Below are positions 3,116 through 62,815 of a stretch of DNA of 64,000 nucleotides, piece by piece. The stretch is from a virus (Duplodnaviria > Heunggongvirae > Uroviricota > Caudoviricetes). The position numbers and the translations under genes are program-made. Each line of letters begins with the position of its first letter. The first letter of the stretch is position 1. The DNA lies in the IMG/VR virus record IMGVR_UViG_3300022660_000042; one strand, given 5' to 3'. Below the pieces are notes generated by a model. That model ran no database searches. It had not been told where the DNA came from and saw nothing but the letters and a program-made list of their open reading frames with translations.

Positions 3116-4192
3116 TTAACTGAAAAACTCGAACATCGTCGGGCGTTCCAAATTAATTTCTTCCTTTGGACCTAACCAACCGGCAATTCTGAACATCGTA
3201 TCAAAAAGCTGACAGAACGATTTTCTGAACGCGGTTTCATAGTCAATCTCAAAGTATTTATTAAATTCTTTCGGCCAAGATTCAAGATATGCAACCGCTT
3301 CAATCGGTTCTATCTTTCCGTCCATATCCTTAGCTGAAATCTTTTGAGAAGGCTTTACATATACATAACGCAATTTTGAGTTATTACGAATCGGATTATA
3401 TTTCAACCTGTCCTTTGTGATAATATAGTTGTAGATAATGGAAATCTTTGCACCGAAAATAAGACCTGTCGGAAGAATCAAACCATGGTCCATATAATAG
3501 TCCATAAGAGTTTCGTATTTCGTGTCGAACGGCTGTGTATTCATCGAACTTTCCATATATTGTTCTCTGAATTTATCCATTGCGATTGTAGTATATTTCG
3601 TATAGTTCTTGATACCAATAACAGACGAAATAACATTCAAATCTGAGCTCTTAAACTGGTCATAAACCTTGTAGATATATTCCTGTGCTTCTTCCTTACC
3701 GATACCGTCACAAATTTTGAACGCGAGTTCTTCGGCTGCAACCTTACAGAAGTCAGGCATTATAGATTTCTTAATAGGAATACCCATGATTTTGTGTTTC
3801 ATGTGGTCCAACGGAAACTTCTTACCTTCACTGTCGATAATATTACCGATATACAACTTCTTCGCAAAACAGAACATGTTTTTGAAGATATTTTCACGGT
3901 TAAAATTAATCTTATTGACTGTATGGAATTGTGTGGCTCGAATTTCAAGAATCCTATCAAAAAAGCGCTGGAATATGTTTTCGCATTTCTCAAAATATCT
4001 ACGATATTCATCTTCATTCGTAATCGATAAACCAGATTCTAATAAACGACGCTTAAGTTCGATAATCGAGAAATAAACGGAGTCCGTGTCATTATGTACG
4101 GCACAGACATCACGTCCTTTCACAACAAGCGGACTCATGTTGTTCATTTGAAATTTATCAATCTTTACATCTAATGCTTTCTTAAATTCCAT
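3116..4192 (-). CDS. family-B DNA polymerase, C-terminal subunit (palm motif C / thumb)
   Basis: Contains the HNDTDSVYF motif C (YGDTDS-type). Real start ATG at 4192..4190 (MEFKKALDV...) with GAGGA Shine-Dalgarno 6 nt upstream. The junction with the upstream gene is TAA-A-ATG. Confidence 0.8.
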   Translation of the reverse strand: MEFKKALDVKIDKFQMNNMSPLVVKGRDVCAVHNDTDSVYFSIIELKRRLLESGLSITNEDEYRRYFEKCENIFQRFFDRILEIRATQFHTVNKINFNRENIFKNMFCFAKKLYIGNIIDSEGKKFPLDHMKHKIMGIPIKKSIMPDFCKVAAEELAFKICDGIGKEEAQEYIYKVYDQFKSSDLNVISSVIGIKNYTKYTTIAMDKFREQYMESSMNTQPFDTKYETLMDYYMDHGLILPTGLIFGAKISIIYNYIITKDRLKYNPIRNNSKLRYVYVKPSQKISAKDMDGKIEPIEAVAYLESWPKEFNKYFEIDYETAFRKSFCQLFDTMFRIAGWLGPKEEINLERPTMFEFFS

Positions 4193-4193
4193 T

Positions 4194-6401
4194 TTAATCC
4201 TCAATACCGAGAAGGTCAGTGTCCTTGTTGAATTCATAAGCATAGATTTCCATTTCGTCATTACCGCGAAGAACGGTAATCTTTTCATAGAAATCATACT
4301 TATATGTCTTTTCTTCTGTAATAATGGAAACTGTCGAGAATTCCTTAATTACATCCTTGAGCAAGTACGGAGAAACATAGTATTCGTTAAGATGCTTAGT
4401 CAACCAGTCTCTCAAGGTAACACGAGCACAACGACAAATTGCACGGGCAACATCCGGGTCATACAATGCGAAGCTGTTTGCAAGAGATACACCGTAAACC
4501 GAGTTAATAATCAACTTCTTGGTCATTTGTCGGTTATGATAAAGATGTGCACCAGCCTTGTCACCATTCTTTTCACATTCCTTTTCCTTATTCTTATATA
4601 TCTTACGTTCTGCAAACACCTGCTTAACAACGTTCGGAAGAATACCATCGTCACGGTTATAGAACCCAAGTTCTGCAACATCCGTCGGAATAACCTCACC
4701 GGATTCAATCTGTTCCTTAGTAGGATGAACAACCTTCAATTCTGGAGAGATATGGAATTCCATAATATGGTGCGGATATGAAGACGTAATATCGAAAGAC
4801 ATACAGTCGTCATGTCGGCCAGGGAAGTCATAACAATAACCGGCTTTTACCTGGAATTCTGGGAATGGATGAGGATCCTTCTTATAAGCATTCCATGCTT
4901 CTATGAAAGCATCTTCAGTTTTCCAATGTTCAAATCGTTTCTGACCAACTATTGACCTAATCGTGGCATAATCGGCTTTTCCTACTTTCTGAGCTTCCTT
5001 ATAGGCATCATAGAAAATCCTGAACTTACAATAATCCTTGTAACGTTTTGCACCAGGTTCCCATTCAGTGTTCTCGAAGTAATCGTTTCCATCCTTATCC
5101 TTGATAATATAGCAACGTTCGTTTCTCCACCAGTCAACATGATGGTCTTCGCGGTCATTAAGCACACGGTTTGTCTTGTGCAAGAACTTCAAGATATAAC
5201 CGGTAGTCGTCGGAACTTTCTGTTCAACCTTATCGAGAGTTACAAGGCAATCGAACGCATATTCAATAATAAGGTCGAAAAGCTTATTCTTTGTTTCCAA
5301 GTCGACCATAATCATAACGTCCTTTCGGTTATACTTCAGGAAGTTATTACCGTCAATCTTGTAGGTTTCAGAAATCGCACCGCTATACTCCAATTTCTGG
5401 TCATTCAATTCGAGGTTGGCCACATAGTTAAGAGAATACGAAGAAAGAGGCGGATGAGATCCGAAGACTTCGTACAGTTTCATGTAGTCAAGCGAATACA
5501 AACCAGGAATGGTATATTTAGTTCCGAGTTCGACATTTTCCATCTTGCGGTCAGTAATCTTTTCCGCAATAGGCATCATGCCAAGAGGAGACAACTGCTT
5601 TTCCCATTCTACCTTTATATCCAGTTTTTCTCTAAGGACTTCACAACGACGCATGATATACGGAATATCGTATGCAAGCGAATTCCAACCTGTAATGATG
5701 TCAAAATGGTTATTGGCGAACCACTTTATCCATTCTCGGATAAGTACCGCTTCTGACTTACAATACGTATAGTTAGGCAAATCCTTAGGGTCATCCGTAT
5801 ATCTGATTGTACTCCAGGTATAAGATTGCTTTGTCTTTGTAGAATAACAAGTAATTGCGTTAATCGGCCATTGTGCTATTTCAGGAGACGGGAAATCATA
5901 GGAAACGAAACAGCTGTCTTCGTACGGAAGATATTTATCAACTTCAATATCATAAACGAAATACTTATCATGGTCAAACTTCATGTCGAAATCAATAAGA
6001 CTAACATCGATAGTCTTATTGGTTTTCTTCTCACAAACTTTAATCAACGTTTCGTCATAATACTTACTGCCAGACGCAACTTCAATATCGAAGAAACAAA
6101 TGTTCCACAAACTCATGTCTACATGGAGTTCTTCGTTATCGTACAGCTGATGCATGTATTTGACTTCAGGACGCAAATTACCTTCACAGACGCCTTTCAG
6201 ACCTATTAACGAATTTCGGTCCTTATAAGGGAACCTTTCCATTGGAGTCTTATGAATATCGGTAAGCTTGCTCTTTTTTGTCTTATCAGGAATGTAGCAC
6301 CAGTTATTGAATTCTACTTCCTTAAATTCAGTATCTTCTTGGGCCTTAAAGTATAACTTTTGTTTCTTAAAGTCCCAATAACAATTTTTAAATCCACTCA
6401 T
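4194..6401 (-). CDS. family-B DNA polymerase, N-terminal subunit (3'-5' exonuclease plus palm motifs A and B)
   Basis: 735 aa; Exo I FFDIEVASGS; motif A SFDITSSYPHHIM (DxxSLYPS-type); motif B KKLIINSVYGVSLANS (KxxxNSxYG). Ends with TAA at 4196..4194. Confidence 0.85.
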   Translation of the reverse strand: MSGFKNCYWDFKKQKLYFKAQEDTEFKEVEFNNWCYIPDKTKKSKLTDIHKTPMERFPYKDRNSLIGLKGVCEGNLRPEVKYMHQLYDNEELHVDMSLWNICFFDIEVASGSKYYDETLIKVCEKKTNKTIDVSLIDFDMKFDHDKYFVYDIEVDKYLPYEDSCFVSYDFPSPEIAQWPINAITCYSTKTKQSYTWSTIRYTDDPKDLPNYTYCKSEAVLIREWIKWFANNHFDIITGWNSLAYDIPYIMRRCEVLREKLDIKVEWEKQLSPLGMMPIAEKITDRKMENVELGTKYTIPGLYSLDYMKLYEVFGSHPPLSSYSLNYVANLELNDQKLEYSGAISETYKIDGNNFLKYNRKDVMIMVDLETKNKLFDLIIEYAFDCLVTLDKVEQKVPTTTGYILKFLHKTNRVLNDREDHHVDWWRNERCYIIKDKDGNDYFENTEWEPGAKRYKDYCKFRIFYDAYKEAQKVGKADYATIRSIVGQKRFEHWKTEDAFIEAWNAYKKDPHPFPEFQVKAGYCYDFPGRHDDCMSFDITSSYPHHIMEFHISPELKVVHPTKEQIESGEVIPTDVAELGFYNRDDGILPNVVKQVFAERKIYKNKEKECEKNGDKAGAHLYHNRQMTKKLIINSVYGVSLANSFALYDPDVARAICRCARVTLRDWLTKHLNEYYVSPYLLKDVIKEFSTVSIITEEKTYKYDFYEKITVLRGNDEMEIYAYEFNKDTDLLGIED

Positions 6402-16103: not shown

Positions 16104-16286
16104 CTATTCTGTGAACCGATATATTATCGCAACCAGTAGAACATTCAGTAAATAGAATTTAAAGAATATTCCTAGGATTGTACGACAACATAAGTCTTTG
16201 CTTGTGGTTCCTATTGAAGATATGACTAAAAAGAAACATTCCAATAGGAACAACGCCGTTCCATATTCAAATATAGTTAAAATCAT
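16104..16286 (-). CDS. small hydrophobic protein
   Basis: 60-aa ORF with two hydrophobic stretches, filling the gap between the kinase and ligase genes. Confidence 0.3.
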   Translation of the reverse strand: MILTIFEYGTALFLLECFFLVISSIGTTSKDLCCRTILGIFFKFYLLNVLLVAIIYRFTE

Positions 16287-17551
16287 TCTTCAATAGTCCT
16301 CTGCACGTTAGAAGGTTCCAATTTTTTGTGAACTGCACGCTTAACAGATGCATAATTAGTGATATTACGATTAATGCACTTGATAGCCTGCATAATAGCC
16401 CCAATATCGCTCTTATAGTGCTCCAGAGCGTATTCGTAGCGAGAACGCTGGTCTTCGCAAGCCTTCATGGTTTCGCGAGCCTCAGCGAGAACTTCTTCAG
16501 TACGTTCCTTAACCTGAATGCGGACACTTTCGGCGTATGCACGTAAATCAGGGAATTCTTCAGGAATATACAGAACTTCATCATCTACAGGCTTGTAACC
16601 GTTAGTCTTGTCGACATGGGCATGGAAGAAATCCTTTTCACAGTCATACGCTACCCAGATATTCCACTCGCTGAGGCATTCGAATATCTTTGCGAGCTGG
16701 CACCATTCATCGGATTTAACCTTGACCTTGAATCCATATTCCGGGAAAGTTACAACATAACCTTCCTGAGACGAAGGAAGCTTGGTCGCAGTATTTCGAG
16801 CGTCATTGAAATTATCGTATTCATAGATTTCTGCCATCTTGATTTGCCAAGTATTGGCATAAGCGCTAAGTCCAATAATATGCTCTTCAGCACCAGTTTC
16901 ATTGTCGATAACTGCCAAAAGAACAAGACCTTCAAAATCATAACGAATCGGGTGAAAATCTTCATTTGAAACAATTTCAAACAAATAAGTTTTCTTCGGA
17001 TTCAAAGTTGCCGCATGAGGACCGCCGATATGCTGGTCAAACCAACGCTGTCCCCAAATTGCCTGGTCAGAATCGAAAGATCCACCGGTCTTCAACTGCC
17101 AATGCTTAAGATAAGGATTCCAGAATACAATACCTAAAGAACCGTCCACCTTTTCCATAGTCAGGAAACGAATAGACTTGAGAATCTTTCGAATATCAAT
17201 TTTCTTCTGGTACTTCATTACCTTTTTTGCAAGGTCGGTAAGTTCGCCAGTTTCGTTGTTAATCAATTCGCCATAGTTGAAGAATTTATCAAAAGGACGT
17301 GCTACAATTTCGCCGGTTTCAGAATCGAAAACAATACCACGAGCATTGAGAGTAATTTCATCCCAATCCGATGAATATACTGTTTCACGAGTATACTTGA
17401 AACCAACCAGCTTACCATACCAGTGAGCTGAAATACGTCCCTTCTTTGCTGCCTTCAAATACTTACGGAGTCTGTGCTTGTTCCGCAGTTTCCGGAGTAG
17501 GTTCTTCAGCCAAGTCATCATTTTTCTTTTCCACCTTTTTCTTAGGCTCAT
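16283..17551 (-). CDS. Rnl1-type RNA ligase (T4 RnlA-like tRNA repair ligase); start uncertain
   Basis: KxDG nucleotidyltransferase motif MEKVDGSL. YSSDWDEITLNARGIVF / RPFDKFFNYGE parallels T4 Rnl1 YSDWLLPDALECRGIMF / RPMEKFFNLNE. The first ~30 codons overlap the 17463..17738 ORF in another frame and look like out-of-frame translation. Confidence 0.8.
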   Translation of the reverse strand: MSLRKRWKRKMMTWLKNLLRKLRNKHRLRKYLKAAKKGRISAHWYGKLVGFKYTRETVYSSDWDEITLNARGIVFDSETGEIVARPFDKFFNYGELINNETGELTDLAKKVMKYQKKIDIRKILKSIRFLTMEKVDGSLGIVFWNPYLKHWQLKTGGSFDSDQAIWGQRWFDQHIGGPHAATLNPKKTYLFEIVSNEDFHPIRYDFEGLVLLAVIDNETGAEEHIIGLSAYANTWQIKMAEIYEYDNFNDARNTATKLPSSQEGYVVTFPEYGFKVKVKSDEWCQLAKIFECLSEWNIWVAYDCEKDFFHAHVDKTNGYKPVDDEVLYIPEEFPDLRAYAESVRIQVKERTEEVLAEARETMKACEDQRSRYEYALEHYKSDIGAIMQAIKCINRNITNYASVKRAVHKKLEPSNVQRTIEE

Positions 17552-18819: not shown

Positions 18820-19938
18820 TTACTTCTGCAGATAATCTTGAATAATCTTTTCATGATGGAAACCCATCTTCGGAAGATTACCGACACTGAACCATGCTGC
18901 ATCCTTCGCATCGTCGCCGGCCTTAGCCATCTTCTTTTCCTTACCAGTAACCCTTACAGATACTGCTGTATCGATAATACGCAAGCGTGGGTCAAACATA
19001 TGGCTATAGGTCTTAATCTGTTCGAACTTTTCAACTGGGAGGTTCAGAGACGTTTCTTCGCGGAATTCACGCTGTGCTGCATGTTCCAAAGAAGCATCAG
19101 CCTTTTCAGGAAGTCCGGTTTCCTTATTGATATAATCAACCGGATTAAAGAATCCACCAGGAGTACAGAAGTAATTCATATACGGTGGTTTCCTACGGCG
19201 AATCAACAGAACTTCATCACCGGAAATACCGACAATATCAACCGTGTTTGCAAACTTTCCCCAACCCTGCTTCTTATAGTTTTCAATCCACTGCTTTTCA
19301 AGTTCAGTATAGTTGGTCGGATTCTGGTCATAAAGACTGTTTGTCTTAATCGGATTATCACGGTCATCCGTAAGTTCGCCTTCTTTTCGGATATATTCAA
19401 ACACTGGCTTGCTAATCAGTGTCTTAACATCCTTATAGTGGCATTCCGGATTACGGTAGAAAATTTTACGAGCTTCGCTACTGGAAATACCTTCAGTCTT
19501 AATACCCATGAGATAAGTACAATCATAACCGTACTTCGATTTCAATGCACCATCATTATCATCACGAGGAATAACCAAGAACTTATAGTTATTCAAAAGC
19601 TGATTACCGAACTTCCACTTTCCGTTAACCAAAGAATACCATTCGTCTTCGCCGATAACAATAGTAATATCCTTATCCTTGGTACCGAACTTATGGGAAA
19701 TGAATTCATAAGTCCTGTTATTCTGAACGAGAATCGTAGGATTCAACTTTCGTGCAGTCATTGCGACCTTAACCATCGCGACACGTTCATCTACCGGAGT
19801 CTTATAATTCTTTTCGTCCGTATTGGAAACAAGAACATAAAGTTCATCGCCCTTACGAACCTTTTTGCTCACTGCCTTAATAATAGCTTCATGAGCGTGA
19901 GTAATCGGATCAAATGCACCACCAATCAAATACTTCAT
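18820..19938 (-). CDS. bifunctional NMN adenylyltransferase / Nudix ADP-ribose pyrophosphatase (NadM-Nudix, NatV-like)
   Basis: N-terminal GGAFDPITHAHEAIIK ((H/T)xGH nucleotidyltransferase motif). C-terminal Nudix box GGFFNPVDYINKETGLPEKADASLEHAAQREFREETSL. Confidence 0.8.
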   Translation of the reverse strand: MKYLIGGAFDPITHAHEAIIKAVSKKVRKGDELYVLVSNTDEKNYKTPVDERVAMVKVAMTARKLNPTILVQNNRTYEFISHKFGTKDKDITIVIGEDEWYSLVNGKWKFGNQLLNNYKFLVIPRDDNDGALKSKYGYDCTYLMGIKTEGISSSEARKIFYRNPECHYKDVKTLISKPVFEYIRKEGELTDDRDNPIKTNSLYDQNPTNYTELEKQWIENYKKQGWGKFANTVDIVGISGDEVLLIRRRKPPYMNYFCTPGGFFNPVDYINKETGLPEKADASLEHAAQREFREETSLNLPVEKFEQIKTYSHMFDPRLRIIDTAVSVRVTGKEKKMAKAGDDAKDAAWFSVGNLPKMGFHHEKIIQDYLQK

Positions 19939-19940
19939 AA

Positions 19941-20333
19941 TTATCTCCTAATATTTCCACAAGATGTATGAGCGTCACCCATAATATCGCCCTTGACTGT
20001 AATGTTTCCTGCATGGGTTTCAACATCACCTGAAACATCACCACCAATTTCGATATTACCTGCTGCACTTTCAACATTACCCATGACGTCGCCAGAAACT
20101 GTAATGTTGTTTCCCTTACATACCTTATCTACGTCACCATAGACCGTAATGTTAATAACTTTATCTTTTACAGTAAAAGACTGATTACCAACAATAACAG
20201 TTTCACCCGAAATCTTAACAGAATCTGCGCAAATAGGTTCTTCAACCTTTTTACCGTTAATTTCAATACTATCTGTGAGGCATAAACCTTTGAGAATATC
20301 TTCAGCCATAGTTTTCCTTATGTTTTTATACAA
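19941..20333 (-). CDS. bactofilin-like protein (beta-helical repeat)
   Basis: Repeated VxGxVxGNIxxGGDVSGDVETHAGNITVKGDIMGD pattern typical of the bactofilin (DUF583) domain. Confidence 0.55.
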   Translation of the reverse strand: MYKNIRKTMAEDILKGLCLTDSIEINGKKVEEPICADSVKISGETVIVGNQSFTVKDKVINITVYGDVDKVCKGNNITVSGDVMGNVESAAGNIEIGGDVSGDVETHAGNITVKGDIMGDAHTSCGNIRR

Positions 20334-26970: not shown

Positions 26971-27330
26971 TCATAAACCACGCGACGCTGAACTGGGGGC
27001 TTTCTTCATTTTTTCCTTATGTTCATTCATAAGTTTTTCAGCAAGTTCATATGACGGAATATAAGAACCAACATCCCATGAAGCATCTTTTGAACAAATA
27101 TGAGGTTTAGATTCTTCTTTCCAAATATGACTATCACGGTATCTTAAATATCGTTCCATATTATAGGTCAAGCGAAACCAATTCTTCGAACCGCTATTTA
27201 TCTTACGATATTCAACAACAAACCATGACGGGTCTCTGTTTACAATACTTGGAGCAACATCAAAATCGAACGTCGGATATTCATATGTACCGAGTTCTAT
27301 AATACGATATTCATAAAGCGATTTTTCCAT
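26971..27330 (-). CDS. hypothetical protein
   Basis: 119-aa ORF. Confidence 0.45.
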   Translation of the reverse strand: MEKSLYEYRIIELGTYEYPTFDFDVAPSIVNRDPSWFVVEYRKINSGSKNWFRLTYNMERYLRYRDSHIWKEESKPHICSKDASWDVGSYIPSYELAEKLMNEHKEKMKKAPSSASRGL

Positions 27331-28484
27331 TAGAACACATATCCTTCACGAGATTTACCGGTTGTAACATTACGCAAGATAGTCGGAATAATTTCACCAG
27401 CCTTCGTAATAATAACTTCATGACCGATTTCGATGCCCATATATTCAAGCATGTCAATATTGCACATATTTGCACGCTGAACTGTAGTTCCGCAAAGTTC
27501 AACAGGTTCAACTACTGCAACCGGAGTCAAATTGCCATTCTTGATAGACCATTCAATGTTAATGAGCTTGGTCTGAGCAAGAGAATACTTCGGCTTGAGT
27601 GCAATCGAGAATTCCGGCAAATAATTGGTTTCAAGATCTTCATAATCAATCAAAGACGTCTTCCAAACAAGACCGTCAATCTGATAATCACGTTCTTCAT
27701 GCCAAATCTGGTCCATAAGAGCGACAGCCTTTTCACCGTTCATGGTTTTAAGGTCGTAAATCTTGTAGTCAACAACATCAAAACCCTGGTTTTTCATCCA
27801 ATCAAGCATATCAGACTGAAGTCGGAAATGACGCTTGGTGTTAGAGGCATAGCGAGCTTCATAAACCTTGATATTAAGCTTTTCACAATCTGCACCGTCG
27901 AGATGCTTCATAATACCAGAAGCAGCATTTCGGCAGTTCTTATACTTCGGGAAATACTTTTCCTTAACGGACTTGTAAAGCAAAATTTCGCCGCGAATAG
28001 TTCCTGTAAAATCCTTATCGACTTTCTTGACGAGACCATTCATCTTAAGAATATTATTGGTAATGTCGTCACCGTATGTACCATCACCACGGGTAGTACC
28101 CTGAACGAACTTTCCATCGACGTATTTAAGCGCAATAGAGCAGCCATCGAGCTTCAAAGGAGCAACGACATATTCATGACCATTCATACGGCACTTATTG
28201 AACCAGACATCCATTTCTGGAGCCGTATTGGCCTTATTCTGAGAACCCATGATAATATCATGCTTGACTTTTTCAAAACCTTCAGTATGGTCCTTACCAA
28301 CTTCCTTCAAAACATCAGAATCAGGATATTTAGTCTTCAGTTCATCCCAGAGTGCATCAAATTCAATGTCGCTCATGATAGGAGAATCGGAATTATAATA
28401 GGCATCTTGTGCCTGACGGATTTTTGCTTCAAGTTCGTTCTTATTCATGTGATACAATATAGTAAAAAATATAGGCTTTGTCAA
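27330..28484 (-). CDS. ligA: NAD-dependent DNA ligase (LigA-type adenylation domain, compact phage form)
   Basis: N-terminal LigA-like opener AQDAYYNSDSPIMSDIEFDALWDEL; adenylation lysine motif KLDGCSIALKYVDGKFVQGTTRGDG (compare LigA [25 protein letters not shown]). Confidence 0.85.
   Translation of the reverse strand: MTKPIFFTILYHMNKNELEAKIRQAQDAYYNSDSPIMSDIEFDALWDELKTKYPDSDVLKEVGKDHTEGFEKVKHDIIMGSQNKANTAPEMDVWFNKCRMNGHEYVVAPLKLDGCSIALKYVDGKFVQGTTRGDGTYGDDITNNILKMNGLVKKVDKDFTGTIRGEILLYKSVKEKYFPKYKNCRNAASGIMKHLDGADCEKLNIKVYEARYASNTKRHFRLQSDMLDWMKNQGFDVVDYKIYDLKTMNGEKAVALMDQIWHEERDYQIDGLVWKTSLIDYEDLETNYLPEFSIALKPKYSLAQTKLINIEWSIKNGNLTPVAVVEPVELCGTTVQRANMCNIDMLEYMGIEIGHEVIITKAGEIIPTILRNVTTGKSREGYVF
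28456..28484 (-). promoter_or_regulatory. sigma70-type promoter TTGACA-17-TATATT embedded in hairpin
   Basis: Plus-strand AATATA at 28456..28461, TGTCAA at 28479..28484, and hairpin TATAGGctttgtcaaCCTATA at 28470..28490. Confidence 0.55.
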
Positions 28485-28485
28485 C

Positions 28486-28752
28486 CTATATTTTAGTTAA
28501 AGAGTTAAGTATTATAAAATCATTCACAAATTGCATATTCTGAAATTTGTCATCGAGGTCATACTTTTTTCCATCCATTTCGACGATTATATCATGTATA
28601 CCCATTAAATGTGAACTTACGTTATCTTTAACAACTATACCGCCAGCTCTATCATGATGAAGTGTCATACGAATAATTTTTTCAATATGACATTCAATAT
28701 CTTCTTCATGTAGGCTTTTATATTTGAGTATTACCGGAATCATATTTATCAT
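28486..28752 (-). CDS. hypothetical protein
   Basis: 88-aa ORF. Confidence 0.4.
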   Translation of the reverse strand: MINMIPVILKYKSLHEEDIECHIEKIIRMTLHHDRAGGIVVKDNVSSHLMGIHDIIVEMDGKKYDLDDKFQNMQFVNDFIILNSLTKI

Positions 28753-37296: not shown

Positions 37297-37358
37297 AATA
37301 TTGCAAATATAGTAAATATTTTTTAACCAATTTTATTTTGTCTTACAAACTTCTGAAA

Positions 37359-38456
37359 TTAAAGGATTTCAAAATACGGTGCATATTTTTCCATGACTTC
37401 AATAACCTTCTTGTAATCAATCTTATTAAGATTCTTCGGAAGGTCCATACCGCCCTTGTTAATCAAATCGCCACAATTTGCAAAATAAAGAAGCTTCTTT
37501 TCTTCACGACAAATTGTTTCCTGCTGAATTACAAGATTAAATTCCTTCTTAGGAAGATACTTCTTGAAATTGGAAATATACTTCGTATAAACAGACTTCA
37601 ATTCTTCAGCATGTTCAGGATCCGTAGTTGCAGAAAGCATCAAAATACCGTTATTGACATATTCAATTACTCCAGCACGAGACTGATATGCAAGACCACG
37701 CTTTTCTCGAATTTCATGATAAAGCGGAGAAGTCAACTTACCGTTAAGCATTTCAAGGGCAATGACTACATACGGATAATCCTTCTTGGAAACCGGCTTC
37801 TTACAGATTGCAAAAACAGTTTCTTTTTCAGGAGCCGGAACAGGCATCAAGCTAACCTTATAATCCTTCTTCCAACGAAGCTTTGTTGTAATTTCAGGCA
37901 TCTTGGTCAAGAACTTAACCTTTACGCCAGTTGTCTGGCGAGGGCCGACTTCAACAATACGAACAGGTTTGAAAAGTTCCTTAAAAAGCTTCTTAGCGTC
38001 TGCAAGAGTAAAATTCATAATATCTTCAGTCTTGCCAAGAACGAAATCGTTATTGAAATGTTGACGAAGCAGGTTATGAAGCTTACCTTCTACAGGACGG
38101 TTAAATGCATCCAAAATTTCCTGGTAAACAATCTTTTGTTCTTTTTCGAAAACTTCCTTTGTGACATAAGTATCGAAACCGGTAGTAACACGTTCAATAA
38201 GCAACTTCTTCCATTCCGGAGTAAGATACTTATCCATGCCAGTAAAATGAACTACGAGCAAATCTGTGCTTGTATAGGCATTAAAATCGATGTTATATTT
38301 CTGAAAGTCATCAAATTGGTCTTGAATAGTATTCGTAATCAAGTGTTCCATCAAATGATGACAACCATGCTGACCATCTTTTTCATAACTAGAACCTGCC
38401 TGGAATACGATATACAAGCCAGTCTTCTTAAAAGATTTCTTCTTATAGATATACAT
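37359..38456 (-). CDS. M16-family (pitrilysin/insulinase-like) zinc peptidase
   Basis: Inverted zincin motif HxxEH as HLMEHL near the N-terminus (GCHHLMEHLITNT); ~365 aa, consistent with a single M16 domain. Confidence 0.55.
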   Translation of the reverse strand: MYIYKKKSFKKTGLYIVFQAGSSYEKDGQHGCHHLMEHLITNTIQDQFDDFQKYNIDFNAYTSTDLLVVHFTGMDKYLTPEWKKLLIERVTTGFDTYVTKEVFEKEQKIVYQEILDAFNRPVEGKLHNLLRQHFNNDFVLGKTEDIMNFTLADAKKLFKELFKPVRIVEVGPRQTTGVKVKFLTKMPEITTKLRWKKDYKVSLMPVPAPEKETVFAICKKPVSKKDYPYVVIALEMLNGKLTSPLYHEIREKRGLAYQSRAGVIEYVNNGILMLSATTDPEHAEELKSVYTKYISNFKKYLPKKEFNLVIQQETICREEKKLLYFANCGDLINKGGMDLPKNLNKIDYKKVIEVMEKYAPYFEIL

Positions 38457-38465
38457 TGTTTTTCC

Positions 38466-38960
38466 TTATATTTTTTCAACCGTTACGCCATTTCGTTCAA
38501 GGAACTGAATTCCTTTAGACCCACGGTCATATTTGTTTACGTACATGACATTCTTGATACCTGCGGCATAAATAAGTCTTGCACACGATTCACAAGGTTC
38601 ATGAGAAATAACCATAGAAGCACCGGTTATATTCATTGTCCATTTCAAAGCATAGCCGAGACAGCTTTGCTCTGCATGGATTTCTTGTTCATTTGCGAAT
38701 TCATGATGTTTAGCTCTCCATTCCATTTCTGGAACTTCCTTCCACTCTTCTTCCTTATTATCTCGCAGATAAAACTTTCCGTTTTCAGATTTGAAAATTT
38801 CGTTACAGTTAATTTGTCCTGCTGGAGTACCATTGTAGCCACATGAAATAATACGGCCTTTTTCAACGAGCAATGCTGCAACTTTCATCCTAGAGCATTT
38901 ACTAAGAGCTTGATATTCCTTAAGAACTGTTTTATAAAGATGTTTATATTTTAATTCCAT
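38466..38960 (-). CDS. dCMP deaminase
   Basis: Cytidine/dCMP deaminase zinc motifs HAEQSCL and SHEPCESCARLI (HAE...PCxxC). Confidence 0.8.
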   Translation of the reverse strand: MELKYKHLYKTVLKEYQALSKCSRMKVAALLVEKGRIISCGYNGTPAGQINCNEIFKSENGKFYLRDNKEEEWKEVPEMEWRAKHHEFANEQEIHAEQSCLGYALKWTMNITGASMVISHEPCESCARLIYAAGIKNVMYVNKYDRGSKGIQFLERNGVTVEKI

Positions 38961-41169: not shown

Positions 41170-41661
41170 TTATGGCATTTTATCTGACTTTTTAACATGG
41201 CTCATTATGCAACGGCCAATAAAGCCTTCAATATCGCTGACATCGGTATCAATATAATAATATTCCTTTTTCAGCTCTTCAATACTTCCATAAAAATACT
41301 TCTTAATATAGCATTGAGTATTTACATCAACCATGGAATATCCAGAATTGTTGACAAAAGTATAATAATTGAGCATTTCATTTCCGTTATAGTATTCGCG
41401 GACTTTGAATGCCTGACTTATAACACCTTCCGTATTTACCTTATTATACGTATTGGTATCGATTACATATTCATAAAGGTTTTGCTTCATGTCGATAACC
41501 GTTACCTTAGTTTTTGTAGCGGAAATCTTAGATTCAGTAGGCATTACTGCACAATACCGAATATCATCGACCGCAGTGCATATTGCATAGGTATTGAATG
41601 TCTTAGCCTGTGCGAAAATACAAACTACAGAAAAAAGAATAGGTAATACGAACTTAATCAT
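41170..41661 (-). CDS. secreted/periplasmic hypothetical protein (signal peptide)
   Basis: MIKFVLPILFSVVCIFAQA signal-peptide-like N-terminus. ATG lies 7 nt downstream of the promoter -10. Confidence 0.45.
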   Translation of the reverse strand: MIKFVLPILFSVVCIFAQAKTFNTYAICTAVDDIRYCAVMPTESKISATKTKVTVIDMKQNLYEYVIDTNTYNKVNTEGVISQAFKVREYYNGNEMLNYYTFVNNSGYSMVDVNTQCYIKKYFYGSIEELKKEYYYIDTDVSDIEGFIGRCIMSHVKKSDKMP

Positions 41662-41668
41662 ATTACCT

Positions 41669-41697
41669 AATATAGAAAAATATCGTAATTTTGTAAA
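41669..41697 (-). promoter_or_regulatory. sigma70-type promoter TTTACA-17-TATATT
   Basis: Plus-strand AATATA at 41669..41674 and TGTAAA at 41692..41697. Confidence 0.55.
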
Positions 41698-41700
41698 TAG

Positions 41701-41826
41701 TTAAATTAAAGCGAACATAACGATAATACCGCCAATCAATCCTACAAGGATAATAGTCGCTATTATCTTCAGCGCCAATTCTTCTATACCGCCGCCGAAT
41801 AGATTTTTATCTTCGTCTTTTGTCAT
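41701..41826 (-). CDS. small membrane protein (41 aa, below the ORF-track cutoff)
   Basis: MTKDEDKNLFGGGIEELALKIIATIILVGLIGGIIVMFALI; ATG at 41826, TAA at 41703..41701. Confidence 0.3.
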   Translation of the reverse strand: MTKDEDKNLFGGGIEELALKIIATIILVGLIGGIIVMFALI

Positions 41827-41830
41827 ACAA

Positions 41831-42247
41831 TTAACCTGTTGTATAAAGCATTTTCTTATAGTCTAAATAATTCTTAATAGTAAATCCAAGATTCTTAATA
41901 TTCGTCAATGTTTCTTCGATAAAATCAAAGTAATACTTCTGTGTATCGTATTCTTTTACTGCTGCAAGATATTTCGGATCCTTATAAATTTGGGATTCGA
42001 TTTCTTTTGTAGTTCCCCAGCTCACATTATCGTTAAACTTATAATAATAATAGCATTCTCCATATATCTTATTCAAATTAACCTTGAGCTGAGATATAAG
42101 ATACTTTTGTGTCGTATATAGTTTTGTCCATTTCTGAACAGTAGAAGGTAAAAGGTTATTTACTTGCATTACCTGTTCAATATTGTCAGGCAATGCAGTA
42201 TCTTCTTCAGCGTATTTCTTTAATGTCTCAAAATCTTCTACTTTCAT
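41831..42247 (-). CDS. hypothetical protein
   Basis: 138-aa ORF. Confidence 0.45.
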   Translation of the reverse strand: MKVEDFETLKKYAEEDTALPDNIEQVMQVNNLLPSTVQKWTKLYTTQKYLISQLKVNLNKIYGECYYYYKFNDNVSWGTTKEIESQIYKDPKYLAAVKEYDTQKYYFDFIEETLTNIKNLGFTIKNYLDYKKMLYTTG

Positions 42248-42754
42248 AACTTATCCTTAACAATTAAATATAGCAAAACTGTAACAAATAGTTTACAACC
42301 TATATATAAAAGTTCTATGATTTTTAAAACGACAGAATATTTTATTTTTAGTTAAAAAAATTTTTACAAAAACTTTCTATTATTGTTTTCACATATTCAA
42401 GTCTGATTCCTCGGAACGAAAACCAATCCAATGGAATTATCGGTAGAGGGTCAGCCATTGAAAACTTCAGATACGGGTTTTCCAGAAATGAGCTGGAATA
42501 TCGTTTTGAAATATACTCGGTAACAGCTAGTGAAAGTATCAGCGAAGTACAGATTAGCAATCTGCACGTTTAGCCGCCATGGTTTTAACGGATGTAGCCG
42601 AAGTACAGGATGACCGCCTCGTAAGCCGTTATGTAAATCCCTAAAGATTGACGATGAAGCTTTATACCAAAAGTGGAATAGTCATAGTCTGGAAGTTCCT
42701 TCTAGGCTTATGATCTCTGAATCGCATTACCCAAAAGATAGAACAGATAAAAAT

Positions 42755-42780
42755 AAAACCTAGTTTAACAACTAGGTTTT
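42755..42780. terminator. bidirectional terminator hairpin
   Basis: AAAACCTAGTT-taacaa-CTAGGTTTT perfect inverted repeat with flanking A/T runs. Confidence 0.65.
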
Positions 42781-42799
42781 AAAATTAAAGATATTTGAA

Positions 42800-42949
42800 T
42801 TATTCTACTGATAAATCGATTTCATCAGAAAGTTCTTGTAATTCATCAAGCTCTTCTTCAGAATATTTCTTTTTCTTCTTATTCAAGACTGTTTCATCAA
42901 TCTGAATCGAATCCAACTCGACGAAATTTTCTTCTGTATTATACATCAT
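42800..42949 (-). CDS. small acidic protein (49 aa)
   Basis: GGAGAAATTT-ATG RBS; MMYNTEENFVELDSIQIDETVLNKKKKKYSEEELDELQELSDEIDLSVE. Confidence 0.4.
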   Translation of the reverse strand: MMYNTEENFVELDSIQIDETVLNKKKKKYSEEELDELQELSDEIDLSVE

Positions 42950-42959
42950 AAATTTCTCC

Positions 42960-43844
42960 TTATTTTAACTCACCGATAGGTTCTTCTTTTCTAATCATGC
43001 CCTTAGGGAATCTTGAATCTCTATAATATTTTGTCATATCCCTACTTGCACGAATATTAGTGAATTCTTCCGGTTTCAATGTTGGCCATTCTCTGGTCCA
43101 TTTTCCTTTATAATAACTAGGTATACCAGCTTCGCTTGCAGATTTTCCATCCTTTATAGCATTTAGGATTTTATTAAGCTGTGTGTTATTTTTAGAAATA
43201 CAGAAATAGCAAGTTCCCAAAGGACCGCCTTCAACTTTTACAATAACGTTTTTAAGACAGAAATCAACAACGTACTTTTTATCCATCATTGCAACGCCAG
43301 TTTCTGTATTTTGAACCGCATATCTTTCAATATTGCCAAGTTCTGGATATTTAAGCGACATTTCATCTGCTAATTGTTTCCAAACACCAGTATGAGCAGT
43401 TTCGGCAGTATTATTCAGAATCTGGCGATAACGTGTAATAGCACGATAGCTTAAAGCACGTCTAGCGGCATCCCATTCAGCTTCCGTAAAACCTACAACG
43501 CAGTCACGGTAATAGTGAAGCATTTCATGAACAAATGTATTTCTAAAAGCGGCAAAAGTACCACAAGCATTGATATTAAGTTTAATTTCGACACCTTCAA
43601 CTTTACTTTCGTAAACATTCGGTCTCGGTCTAAAATAGCCATGAACACTTGTACCCTTGAACCAGCCTAATGAAATCGGTTGAAGCTTACCTCCGAAGTA
43701 AGTATCGTTAAATTCATTAAAATACTTCTTTAACGCTGCGTCATTCTTTTCGAATTCTTCGCCGGTATCTGGGTCTGTAAGCTTAAAGCTTTCGTCTAAT
43801 AAAAATTCTTCATTTTCCATATTATATTTATGACAATTCTTCAA
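42960..43844 (-). CDS. SprT-like zinc metallopeptidase domain protein
   Basis: HEMLHY (HExxH) preceded by an SprT-like N-terminal region (KKYFNEFNDTYFGGKLQPISLGWFKGTSVHGYF...NTFVHEMLHYY). Confidence 0.6.
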   Translation of the reverse strand: MKNCHKYNMENEEFLLDESFKLTDPDTGEEFEKNDAALKKYFNEFNDTYFGGKLQPISLGWFKGTSVHGYFRPRPNVYESKVEGVEIKLNINACGTFAAFRNTFVHEMLHYYRDCVVGFTEAEWDAARRALSYRAITRYRQILNNTAETAHTGVWKQLADEMSLKYPELGNIERYAVQNTETGVAMMDKKYVVDFCLKNVIVKVEGGPLGTCYFCISKNNTQLNKILNAIKDGKSASEAGIPSYYKGKWTREWPTLKPEEFTNIRASRDMTKYYRDSRFPKGMIRKEEPIGELK

Positions 43845-44643
43845 CGAAGGTAATGAACTTCATCGGAATGTTTTGGTTAGTAAAGCATGCACATGAAGAC
43901 AATTCGTCATCGTCGTCGAATTCCGGATCTTTATGAACAGGCCAGTTTTCAGGAAGGTCGATTCTGTACATATACATCTGCGGCATTGATTCATCATGGT
44001 CTTCTTCCCATTCAATGACTATCTGGCCGAACATAGACTGTGCGAGGTTGTACATTTCGTCATTAAGCTTATGCTGGGCTGTTCTTACGTTCGTGTCTAT
44101 ATCTATATCACCTCTGAGGATAAGGACCTTTAAAGCCATCTTACCGTTAATCATATAGATACGAGGAGGATAGTTGACCTTCATAGACTTCCTCTTACAA
44201 CGAAGACCACCGGTTTTGACCAAATCATCCGGCGATGCACTGCTTATATGATAGAACTTCGTAAAATCGAGTTTTCCAAGGAACTTATTGAATGTAGCCA
44301 TATATTCCTTGTTTTTGAAAAGCTCAAGTTCGTAATAAGGCTTTACATTATCGACATCTTCTCTTCCTTGGCGGAAAATAAGTTCATCTGTCGTATATTG
44401 TCCTTTAGAATTGACTAGAGAACAATCATCCCAACCGTTAGCGGCGAAAAACTTCGAAATTTCGTCGACTTCAAGTCCTTTATCCGTTAAGGTTGAAATT
44501 GCGAACTTAACTTCCATGCCGTTCAAAATGAGACGCTTTGCACAGTCTTGTAATGGAATATGAAATCTTACTCTGAACTTCTTTACTAATTCAGGCAAAT
44601 CTACAAATTTAAGCGATTCTGTCAAAATATTTAAAAGTCTCAT
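43828..44643 (-). CDS. hypothetical protein, paralog family ending in ...xCACFT
   Basis: Shares the N-terminal MRL start and the C-terminal HKDPEFDDDDELSSCACFTNQNI motif with the adjacent 44644..45366 gene. Confidence 0.5.
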   Translation of the reverse strand: MRLLNILTESLKFVDLPELVKKFRVRFHIPLQDCAKRLILNGMEVKFAISTLTDKGLEVDEISKFFAANGWDDCSLVNSKGQYTTDELIFRQGREDVDNVKPYYELELFKNKEYMATFNKFLGKLDFTKFYHISSASPDDLVKTGGLRCKRKSMKVNYPPRIYMINGKMALKVLILRGDIDIDTNVRTAQHKLNDEMYNLAQSMFGQIVIEWEEDHDESMPQMYMYRIDLPENWPVHKDPEFDDDDELSSCACFTNQNIPMKFITFVEELS

Positions 44644-61010: not shown

Positions 61011-61715
61011 TTACTTATTACTTACAGAAGTATCAACCTTGGAAGTATTTGCGAAGTTGTAAATAAATCCGTATGGTGCTTTCTTCTTAATAAGCGTTGT
61101 TAAGCGGCTAATAAACTTCTTAAAGAAATTTTCTCCTGCTCCAGAAATAGTCAACTTAATGAAGTCTTGTTTTTCATCGCCTTCGATTAAATCAACGTTT
61201 ATTTTAACAGGATTGTCTTCCTTATCAAGATTTTCCAAATAATTATCGGAAATTACCTGAATTGCTTCCTTAAGATTCTGTTCGATTTTTTGAACAACAA
61301 CGCCCCTAAGTTTTTCATTAGAGAAATCAAAACCAGTTTCTTTTTCGGCTTCAAGAATAATACTATCCAAATCTAAACCAAAAGCTTCAGAAACATTAAT
61401 TTCGATAAGTTTGATGTTGGAAAAACTTTTAATCTTATTGATAATTTCAGTATATTTTTTATTTGCACCAGCCTTATCAAATTCGCCTTCCGGTGTCTGC
61501 ATATTACCAAGGGATTCAATAGCTTGCTTAATATTTGACTTATTGATAGCAACTTTATAGACAAAATTACGGCTGTTCATTTCCTTAACTTTGTCCTGCT
61601 TATCCTGTTCGTCTTTTTCTGCCTGTGCAATGTCGAATTTATCTTTTGCAATCTTTGCAACACGATCGAAAAGTTTTTGTGCTTTAAAAACGGATGCTTC
61701 AAATAAATTTGTCAT
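61011..61715 (-). CDS. hypothetical protein
   Basis: 234-aa ORF; ATGA overlap with the upstream gene. Confidence 0.5.
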   Translation of the reverse strand: MTNLFEASVFKAQKLFDRVAKIAKDKFDIAQAEKDEQDKQDKVKEMNSRNFVYKVAINKSNIKQAIESLGNMQTPEGEFDKAGANKKYTEIINKIKSFSNIKLIEINVSEAFGLDLDSIILEAEKETGFDFSNEKLRGVVVQKIEQNLKEAIQVISDNYLENLDKEDNPVKINVDLIEGDEKQDFIKLTISGAGENFFKKFISRLTTLIKKKAPYGFIYNFANTSKVDTSVSNK

Positions 61716-62815
61716 TATGCTTCTCCTCGATTCATGTTCTTCTTAATAATCATTGTGTTAACCTTGACTTCCTTCGGTTCACCGAATTCGCCAATGATAT
61801 TTTCATCATCGATTTCATCAAGGAAGTTCTGACAGTCGGCAACAGTTTCGAAATTCAAGAACACATTGCCCTTCTGAGAACCACGACCATACAAGAAGTG
61901 ACCAACGTCTTCAGCTTTCTTATTGATTGCTGCAAAGAGTTTATTAAGTTCTTCGCCGATACCAGACAAGTCGATATTCGGATTTTCTTTACGCTTTGCT
62001 TCGATAAATTCTTCAATATCACTATCGGAAAGCTTCCAAACAATACGTCCAATCTTTCTATCGTTACCATAGCGGTTATTCTTTACTGCATCCATAATTT
62101 CATCTTTGATTTTGTCAAAGATAACTTCGGAACTCTTGTCAGTAAACTTAGCCTTTTCAATGGTCTTACTCTGCTTCCAACCGCGGTTTTCACTTTCAAC
62201 CTTGTCGTAAACAATTCCCTTACGGCGAGTACATTTTTCAATTTTAATCATCGCCTTAAGAGTATCTTCCGAAACTTCAAGAATCTTCTGTTCGAACAAC
62301 TTTTCATTCATGAAATCTTCAGCATGGTCCTTGGAATCATAATACATGTACAAATGACCGTCCTGAACCCAAGAATACTTATAGCCCTTGATAGCGTCAG
62401 TGTAAAGTTTTTCGTCTTCATCACTTCCGGGATTAGTATCTGGACTATCGTATTTTGTATTGGCACCACGAGCAAATCCGACAATTTTATCGATTGTGCT
62501 ATTGACTGTATCTGTAATAGTCTTTATAATTTCAGTCTTAGCATTGTCAATATCGTCGCTGTTTTTGCTGTCCTTAAGTGTCATAGCACACTTTTCGATA
62601 AGGCCTTGACGGAAATTACGATTACTGAAATCGAAATTCAAACGCCAAAGTTCAATCTTTTCATCCGAAAGATTACCGGTAAGGTGCTTCTTTGTATTAT
62701 GCCAGCTTTTCTTAAAAATATCACCAATGCCTTCGTCAAGCTGAAGGTCGTAGGTATAATTACCCTTTAGCTTTTCTTTCGCTAAATACTGTGAAAATGT
62801 TGTATCTTTATTCAT
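61715..62815 (-). CDS. hypothetical protein
   Basis: 366-aa ORF. Confidence 0.5.
   Translation of the reverse strand: MNKDTTFSQYLAKEKLKGNYTYDLQLDEGIGDIFKKSWHNTKKHLTGNLSDEKIELWRLNFDFSNRNFRQGLIEKCAMTLKDSKNSDDIDNAKTEIIKTITDTVNSTIDKIVGFARGANTKYDSPDTNPGSDEDEKLYTDAIKGYKYSWVQDGHLYMYYDSKDHAEDFMNEKLFEQKILEVSEDTLKAMIKIEKCTRRKGIVYDKVESENRGWKQSKTIEKAKFTDKSSEVIFDKIKDEIMDAVKNNRYGNDRKIGRIVWKLSDSDIEEFIEAKRKENPNIDLSGIGEELNKLFAAINKKAEDVGHFLYGRGSQKGNVFLNFETVADCQNFLDEIDDENIIGEFGEPKEVKVNTMIIKKNMNRGEA

Follow-up and report, generated by a model that had tools for sequence, protein, structure and literature searches.

Introduction

Large, highly conserved and knotted RNAs are rare, and the cases described in the past have proved to be ribozymes, RNA-protein machines and, lately, RNA cages. 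In phage phi29, the pRNA of about 170 nt is a phage-encoded structural RNA of the DNA-packaging motor. Phage T4 produces two stable RNAs of about 120-140 nt, species 1 (RNA C) and species 2 (RNA D), which are encoded in its tRNA cluster; T4-like phages package their DNA with a protein terminase, and they carry group I introns. ROOL and GOLLD, two other RNAs considered below, often adjoin tRNA islands. To our knowledge, the Rfam motif cow-rumen-2 is an orphan, with neither an organism nor a function assigned to it.

Cow-rumen-2 was described as a candidate sRNA by Weinberg et al. in 2017, in a study of 224 motifs (PMC5737381). Its consensus structure was revised with R-scape in Rfam 15 (PMC11701678), the sole mention of the motif in the literature searched. 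ROOL and GOLLD are phage or prophage RNAs that form cages and whose function is open (PMC12286853; PMC5737381), and ROOL, too, was discovered in cow rumen (PMC5737381).

The locus described here lies between two genes in a 64,000-nucleotide stretch of viral DNA (IMG/VR record IMGVR_UViG_3300022660_000042), which was analysed as a whole and is called the window below. It almost certainly encodes a functional structured RNA of the cow-rumen-2 family (RF02947). The window shares with RF02947 three helices, the conserved strands and the rumen or ruminant-gut origin of the homologues. The RF02947 model, however, covers only about one quarter to one third of the conserved RNA, and has no counterpart of the three pseudoknots found here, nor of the 5' and 3' domains or the three-way junction. 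Like ROOL and GOLLD, the RNA is phage-encoded, large for a noncoding RNA of the bacterial world, and multiply pseudoknotted; unlike them, it is shorter, is not beside tRNA genes, and matches neither in sequence or structure. Like RNA C and RNA D, it would be a stable non-coding RNA of a T4-type phage whose function is open, whereas those two are smaller and sit in a tRNA cluster, of which this window has none, and no similarity to them is expected.

Results

The intergenic island and its host phage

The island occupies positions 42248-42799, between a UvsY-like gene on the minus strand (41831-42247; PHROG 231, E 3e-12) and, on the far side, a small minus-strand ORF at 42800-42949. Both flanking ORFs are complete, mutually unrelated and opposite in strand to the RNA, and no split gene was seen. 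An initial annotation of this DNA, made by eye, had stated that the island holds no credible ORF. This was borne out, since only short and unconserved frames were present (70 aa from a TTG start at 42348-42560 on the minus strand, 38 aa and 30 aa), none of which matched Pfam. The same annotation had described the central segment as GC-richer than the rest of the genome. The G+C content of 42400-42720 (0.42) is indeed far above that of its own flanks (0.18), but it exceeds the mean of the whole window (0.37) by only about 1 SD and is equalled by 15% of 320-nt windows. The "GC island" thus differs from its own AT-rich flanks, not from the genome.

The host is a distant T4-like phage. UvsX, DNA polymerase, RNA ligase 1-like, RNase H-like and UvsY proteins are encoded in the window, and the UvsX shares only about 28-30% identity with that of isolates. 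The T4-type DNA polymerase is spread over two minus-strand ORFs that span 3116-6401, with the N-terminal part at 4194-6401 and the C-terminal part at 3116-4297. Both match PHROG 262 and they overlap by about 100 nt; the arrangement may reflect a gene that is naturally split, a frameshift or an error of assembly. The RNA ligase 1 / gp63-like gene (16283-17551, minus strand; PHROG 562, E 2e-45) indicates that the phage has RNA-repair capacity, and no link between this gene and the RNA gene was found.

Several other features of the coding complement were recorded. A tandem pair of paralogous ORFs, made up of 43828-44643 on the minus strand and the adjacent upstream minus-strand ORF, belongs to a family that begins with MRLLNILTESLKF, and the pair is shared only with the closest relatives of the window (loci L002-L004). 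The 294-aa ORF at 42960-43844 (minus strand) gave a weak match to SprT-like zinc metalloproteases, at 22.9 bits under the Pfam cut-off of 25.6. Pairs of long ORFs (>350 aa) on opposite strands overlap almost fully at 18820-19971, 27330-28496, 37338-38846 and 61694-62815; these are probably shadow ORFs of real genes.

A match to the cow-rumen-2 family

Scanning of the whole window against Rfam 15 with cmscan gave a single match at the gathering level, RF02947 (cow-rumen-2), located at 42541-42645 on the plus strand. The match scored 102.8 bits against a gathering score of 66 (E 1e-18) and covered the entire model, from position 1 to 106 of 106, so that these 105 nt are typical of the family. 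A permissive local scan of 42200-42850 (E<=10) recovered RF02947 again, with E 1e-20; the matches to other RNA families were at chance level only, with no intron, tRNA, tmRNA, RNase P RNA, 6S or SRP RNA. ARAGORN also called no tRNA or tmRNA gene in the window. The Rfam search thus gave a clear family assignment, and a tRNA in the island, for which the initial annotation had looked by eye, was found by neither tool.

The helices of RF02947 were all located on the plus strand. H4 is formed by 42548-53 and 42561-66 around the loop UAGCAA. The invariant strand UAGCCGCCAU (42571-80) follows, and then the long helix H5 (42581-91 / 42626-40), which encloses H6 (42599-603 / 42618-21 plus 42608-09 / 42614-15, with the loop AUGA). 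In 40 sequences, the 22 nested pairs of H4, H5 and H6 were paired at 95.7%, and 19 of the 22 had changed on both sides. The unpaired strands of the RF02947 model, AGCCGCCA, AUGUAGC, ACAGGAUGACC and UAAG, are all present in the window and are invariant or nearly so in 59 homologues. The complementarity TAACGG...CCGTTA and the hairpin CAGATTAGCAATCTG, both of which had been picked out by eye, turned out to be real: they are H5 and H4, respectively, with compensatory changes. The repeated word CGAAGTACAG reported earlier is likewise present, at 42543-52 and 42599-608, with both copies at conserved positions.

Homologues in ruminant-gut phages

BLASTN found no match to the island among 50,697 deposited genomes of phages, and its relatives are known only from metagenome-derived collections. 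Three pattern scans of IMG/VR and one scan of the GTDB genome set yielded 78 homologous copies, of which 60 were unique (about 28 effective sequences), and all of them lie in viral or ruminant-gut contigs. The closest, L002-L004, are 98-99% identical to the window across the whole island. Alignment of 15 lineages revealed near-invariant blocks that define a conserved unit of about 340 nt at 42397-42734, and an nhmmer profile of the 15 lineages found a single copy in the window, at the same positions (E 1e-74). The core of about 42400..42720 that had been proposed is thus conserved, but it was drawn too small, the unit being about 42397-42734 plus the terminator. As described below, the homologues from related phages covary across the whole island.

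The matches from the GTDB set were all in contigs of goat or ruminant-gut MAGs with T4-like neighbours, and their labels were inconsistent (Methanobrevibacter, Succinivibrionaceae, Bacilli). They are probably mis-binned phage contigs. Among them, L072-L080 (JAFQXD010000042.1, JAFRFB010000097.1 and others) are goat-gut MAG contigs of 173-191 kb that carry the label Methanobrevibacter and two copies of the RNA each; they are probably phage contigs that were binned with the archaeon because of their low G+C.

The RNA was found in at least four conserved settings, namely between baseplate-like genes, upstream of a UvsW-like block, divergent from uvsY as in the window, and near gp46/47-like genes. 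Its orientation relative to the neighbours varies, with either strand used among the settings. No protein family was constantly adjacent to the RNA among the related loci, and no tRNA gene was detected by ARAGORN near it in 33 related loci. Large contigs hold two to four paralogues of the RNA. Four diverged paralogues each are present in IMGVR_UViG_3300028832_000001 (L034, L040, L041 and L044) and in IMGVR_UViG_3300037455_000543 (L014, L019, L049 and L097); these two contigs span 415-424 kb, and may be genuine jumbo phages or chimeric assemblies.

The 5' domain, the three-way junction and the pseudoknots

All structure tests were made on MAFFT alignments built without structural guidance. As controls we used 500 shuffles, which do not correct for the relatedness of the sequences, and slid controls, which do. 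None of the 500 shuffles reached the observed pairing or covariation score in the tests of P1x, B0-B2, PK1, PK2/PK3 or H4-H6, and the slid controls paired at 10-59% across all structure tests.

Upstream of the Rfam motif, the plus strand is predicted to fold into a 5' domain at 42403-42454 (alignment A2, 42 sequences), which consists of the helix P1x, internal-loop strands and the hairpin P2x. P1x (42403-06 + 42409-12 / 42446-49 + 42451-54) was paired at 94.8%, compared with 29-52% for its slid controls, and seven of its eight pairs had changed on both sides. It encloses the near-invariant internal-loop strands GGARCGA and RUCGGUA together with P2x (42420-24 / 42433-38, loop AAYYCAAU), which is weaker, with covariation in two of four pairs. 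The 5' domain is followed by a three-way junction at 42456-42532 (alignment A3, 32 sequences, MAFFT only). Its members are B0 (42456-59 / 42529-32; 97% paired), the hairpin B1 (42460-65 / 42477-82; 88%) and the hairpin B2 (42491-95 / 42524-28, loop GGUA...AAC; 99%). Thirteen of the 15 pairs in B0-B2 had changed on both sides, and the covariation score was 0.47, compared with 0.16 in the shuffles.

Long-range contacts were first pointed to by a mutual-information scan and then examined with a pair-counting tool. PK1 joins the GAUAC of the B1 loop (42470-74) to the GUAUC of the linker (42536-40), which immediately precedes the Rfam motif. PK1 was paired at 86.5% (slid controls, 22-50%); all five of its pairs had changed on both sides, and its covariation score was 0.83 against 0.21 in the shuffles. 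Covariation also supports PK2, between G42557 and C42558 of the H4 loop and G42597 and C42598, and PK3, between G42542 and C42543 and G42616 and C42617. Taken together, PK2 and PK3 were paired at 98.1% (slid controls, 10-59%) with changes on both sides in all four pairs, and the variety of pairs is illustrated by one example with GC 16, UA 15, AU 4 and CG 3. Because PK1 and PK3 use neighbouring nucleotides of one strand, the 5' domain is physically tied to the Rfam core. The Rfam motif alone is not the folding unit.

A possible fourth pseudoknot between CCGCC (42574-78) and UCGG (42439-43) has two invariant sides, and the lone variable pair does not covary. Some further candidates were tried and rejected. 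A hammerhead-like CUGA lies in a stretch that covaries as a helix. The idea of an RNase P-like element (5' AAGUC with 3' GGCUU, P4-like) failed at the fourth position, where U, C or A faces an invariant G without compensation, and also failed because GGCU is the 3' strand of the hairpin D2 described below. For a helix that would close the RNA by joining its 5' leader to its 3' tail, pairing was inconsistent among lineages. A small peptide read from the conserved AUG in CAAUGG was discarded as the ORF is lost, for example in L007, where a stop follows after seven codons.

The 3' domain and its internal repeat

The 3' domain (42645-42716, plus strand) is the least certain part of the fold model, with competing pairings in some lineages. 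Inspection of the lineages suggests a closing helix D0, between AGAUU (42645-49) and GAUCU (42712-16), and a hairpin s1, between GCUUU (42659-63) and AAAGU (42670-74). The hairpin D2 (42687-95 / 42699-707, loop UUC), which contains the invariant UAGGCU, was recognized by comparing stems over the lineages. D2 stems of 7-10 bp with differing 5' partners were present in 16 of 24 lineages, and the mean stem length was 6.5 bp, compared with 4.3 bp when the 5' part was shuffled. In L018, L041 and L077 (for example L041:3947-4270), the core and the 3' domain are kept next to an unrelated 5' domain (UAGACAGCAACUGGGGCUGAGAGAUGCCC...), which suggests that the RNA is modular.

A direct repeat brackets D2, with R1 (CCAAAAGUGGAAUAG, 42667-81) before it and R2 (CCAAAAGAUAGAACAG, 42731-46) after it, both on the plus strand. 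The repeat is present in every lineage, but its words are lineage-specific: CCAAAAG..GAAnAG in the window, and ACGGAAUAU, ACAGAU, GGUCCAU or stretches of about 40 nt elsewhere, the repeated stretch reaching about 40 nt in L082, L085 and L095. The score of R1 against its own R2 averaged 17.1, compared with 12.1 +/- 2.5 against the R2 of other lineages, and in 12 lineages the own R2 was the best of 23 for R1. A third segment is complementary to two similar words and can form a helix with one or the other (W:Z1 or W:Z2), so that the two helices are mutually exclusive. R1 and R2 could be a switch or twin recognition loops.

Extent, strand and putative transcription signals of the RNA gene

From the sequence, we infer an RNA gene of about 390 nt at 42392-42783 on the plus strand. 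Its 5' end is placed at about 42392 because conservation starts there (ACAU...), and its 3' end at 42783 because of the U run after the terminator stem. Only the plus strand gave the RF02947 match. The covarying helices contain many G-U pairs, which also point to the plus strand, since their minus-strand equivalents would be A-C mismatches. The folding energy was equally unusual on both strands (z of -3.2 on the plus and -3.3 on the minus strand), and therefore gives no strand call.

A putative promoter region at 42363-42385 (plus strand) contains TTTACA (42363-68) and the conserved box TATTATTG (42378-85), which reads as a -10 element or a TAnnTTTG-like element. In most lineages of the alignment, the RNA is preceded by conserved boxes that read GTTTACA-N17-TATAAT/TATATT(TG). 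The spacer in the window lineage is 8 nt shorter than in L007, L005 and L009, which puts TTTACA out of register and makes the -35 assignment doubtful in this lineage. A second match to the promoter consensus lies at 42292-42321, and the short spacer and this second site leave the start of the RNA uncertain.

Downstream, a terminator hairpin at 42754-42781 (AAAACCUAGUU-UAAC-AACUAGGUUUU) has a 12-bp stem and would serve both strands, being shared with the converging minus-strand gene. The terminator scan called this site for the minus strand alone, on which TTTTTATCTG comes after the stem (4 sites versus 0.6 expected). Only UUUU comes after it on the plus strand, and the hairpin is therefore a weaker terminator for the RNA than for the converging gene. 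Of the "perfect bidirectional terminator" claimed earlier, the 12-bp hairpin and its minus-strand activity as a predicted terminator stand, whereas the plus-strand side, with its four U, is weaker than the wording implied. Other lineages have their own hairpin terminators 20-40 nt past R2, or else the T4-type TATAAATA late promoter of the next gene. A second terminator-like hairpin in the window (41640-41669, minus strand; a 12-bp stem and then TTCTTTTTTC) is located at the 5' end of the ORF 41170-41661 (minus strand), and probably terminates the small ORF 41701-41826, which lies about 30 nt upstream of the hairpin.

Discussion

As far as sequence comparison can tell, the locus is a gene in its own right, carried by a T4-like rumen phage, and specifies a structured RNA of about 350-390 nt on the plus strand, opposite to its coding neighbours. 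The RF02947 match and the island-wide covariation in phage homologues support the structured non-coding RNA that had been suspected at this place. The covariation shows that the RF02947 motif is only the core of a larger fold, the rest of which is the 5' domain, the junction, the three pseudoknots and the 3' domain. The overall anatomy comprises at least nine helices, three pseudoknots and long invariant single strands. Since the locus clearly belongs to a family already catalogued, the term "candidate structured RNA" used in the initial annotation was right, and the RNA is not new as such. What is new is the phage host, the full extent of the RNA, its pseudoknots, its paralogy and the concerted internal repeat.

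The RNA probably acts in trans. Its varied settings, its paralogues and its own boxes and terminators argue against a cis leader, an intron or a gene remnant. As an overall explanation we favour, by somewhat better than even chances, a free-standing phage RNA gene whose product is a trans-acting, compact folded object. Such a compact three-dimensional object would work neither through coding nor through simple antisense pairing. The invariant unpaired segments GGAGCGA, GUCGGUA, UAGCCGCCAU, GAUGUAGC, ACAGG..GACC, GUAAG and UUCC/UAGGCU would most likely make up a tertiary core, which may serve in catalysis or in the binding of a protein or nucleic-acid partner, and the two identical, lineage-specific words of the 3' domain may be recognition or switching elements. 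As to its nature, our leading but tentative choice, itself given a little less than an even chance, is an RNA-protein or ribozyme-like machine rather than any of the rivals considered below. Phi29 pRNA offers an analogy for this mode of action only: it is a folded phage RNA that is a machine part and not a regulator, but its sequence and size are unrelated, and no link to packaging genes was seen for the RNA described here.

The rival that survives best, although it is unlikely, is a base-pairing regulatory RNA, in which the fold would be a scaffold and R1/R2 (here CCAAAAG...) would be seed loops for phage or host transcripts. The two words are identical within each RNA and different across lineages, for which a varying nucleic-acid target is the easiest fit, and in several lineages they fall in predicted loops or single strands. 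However, complements of the repeated words in the 64-kb window were no commoner than chance (7 versus 5.1 expected, 1, the RNA itself, versus 0.4, and 8 versus 4.7), and 390 nt with three pseudoknots far exceeds what a seed scaffold needs. An sRNA or a ribozyme, as suggested in the initial annotation, may apply; typical base-pairing sRNAs are much smaller and less knotted than this RNA.

Phage origin, the rumen, multiple pseudoknots and the lack of an evident protein partner also recall ROOL and GOLLD, and would suit a self-assembling RNA-only particle in the form of a homo-oligomeric cage. We give this a low probability. No Rfam match to either RNA was obtained even at E<=10, and at about 390 nt the RNA is shorter than ROOL (about 580 nt) and GOLLD (more than 800 nt). 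The window and the 33 related loci have no tRNA gene, and palindromic loops that would hint at kissing contacts were not seen.

About equally improbable is an element acting in cis, either a leader or attenuator of a same-strand downstream gene, or a module that serves the minus-strand uvsY operon as antisense or terminator. The RNA does lie directly upstream of the same-strand gene "MKSEKLDLN..." in 25 loci and of another gene in 11; in the window it is antisense to the intergenic spacer of a row of minus-strand genes, and the mutually exclusive pairings of the 3' domain resemble an expression platform. Against this, no plus-strand gene comes next in the window, as a riboswitch or leader would have it, and a terminator and a converging gene are found there instead. 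The neighbours differ over at least four contexts, where the downstream gene is on the same strand it has a TATAAATA late promoter of its own, placed after the RNA and before the start codon, and a hairpin terminator ends the RNA in many lineages.

It is very improbable that the RNA descends from a self-splicing intron or another mobile ribozyme, whether as a relic or as a free-standing derivative. Such an origin would agree with an RNA that is multi-copy and complex and has long-range pseudoknots, but no intron family was matched in 42200-42850 at E<=10, no host gene is interrupted, and the RNA has its own promoter-like boxes. Its copies occupy the same conserved intergenic positions in diverged phages and are not scattered, and the order of its helices is unlike the P3-P8/P4-P6 arrangement or the P3-P7 pseudoknot core. 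The degenerate intron that had been offered as an option is thus left unsupported. A decayed protein-coding gene or a chance GC-rich spacer, the former also among the early suggestions, has next to no probability, since the 70-aa TTG ORF that overlaps the island on the minus strand matches no protein family in Pfam, the indels between lineages are not in multiples of three, and the compensatory substitutions in the helices and the strong covariance-model match refute it.

Returning to the machine-like, trans-acting RNA that we prefer, a more specific and speculative version, to which we assign a small chance, is that it represents a so far undescribed class of large ribozymes or RNA-protein machines of phages, with R1/R2 programming or flipping it and with paralogues for different targets. 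The invariant pseudoknotted core would then provide the chemistry or the binding. R1/R2 would direct the RNA to a lineage-specific nucleic-acid target or toggle it between two conformations, and the several paralogues in a T4-like genome may each have different targets.

The functional unit of this family exceeds the catalogued motif three- to fourfold in length, and cow-rumen-2 is now placed in T4-like phages of the ruminant gut, where it occurs as paralogues at conserved genome positions. The motif thereby becomes a concrete experimental object with a defined transcript, and even without a function these results are a useful correction of the cow-rumen-2 family model.
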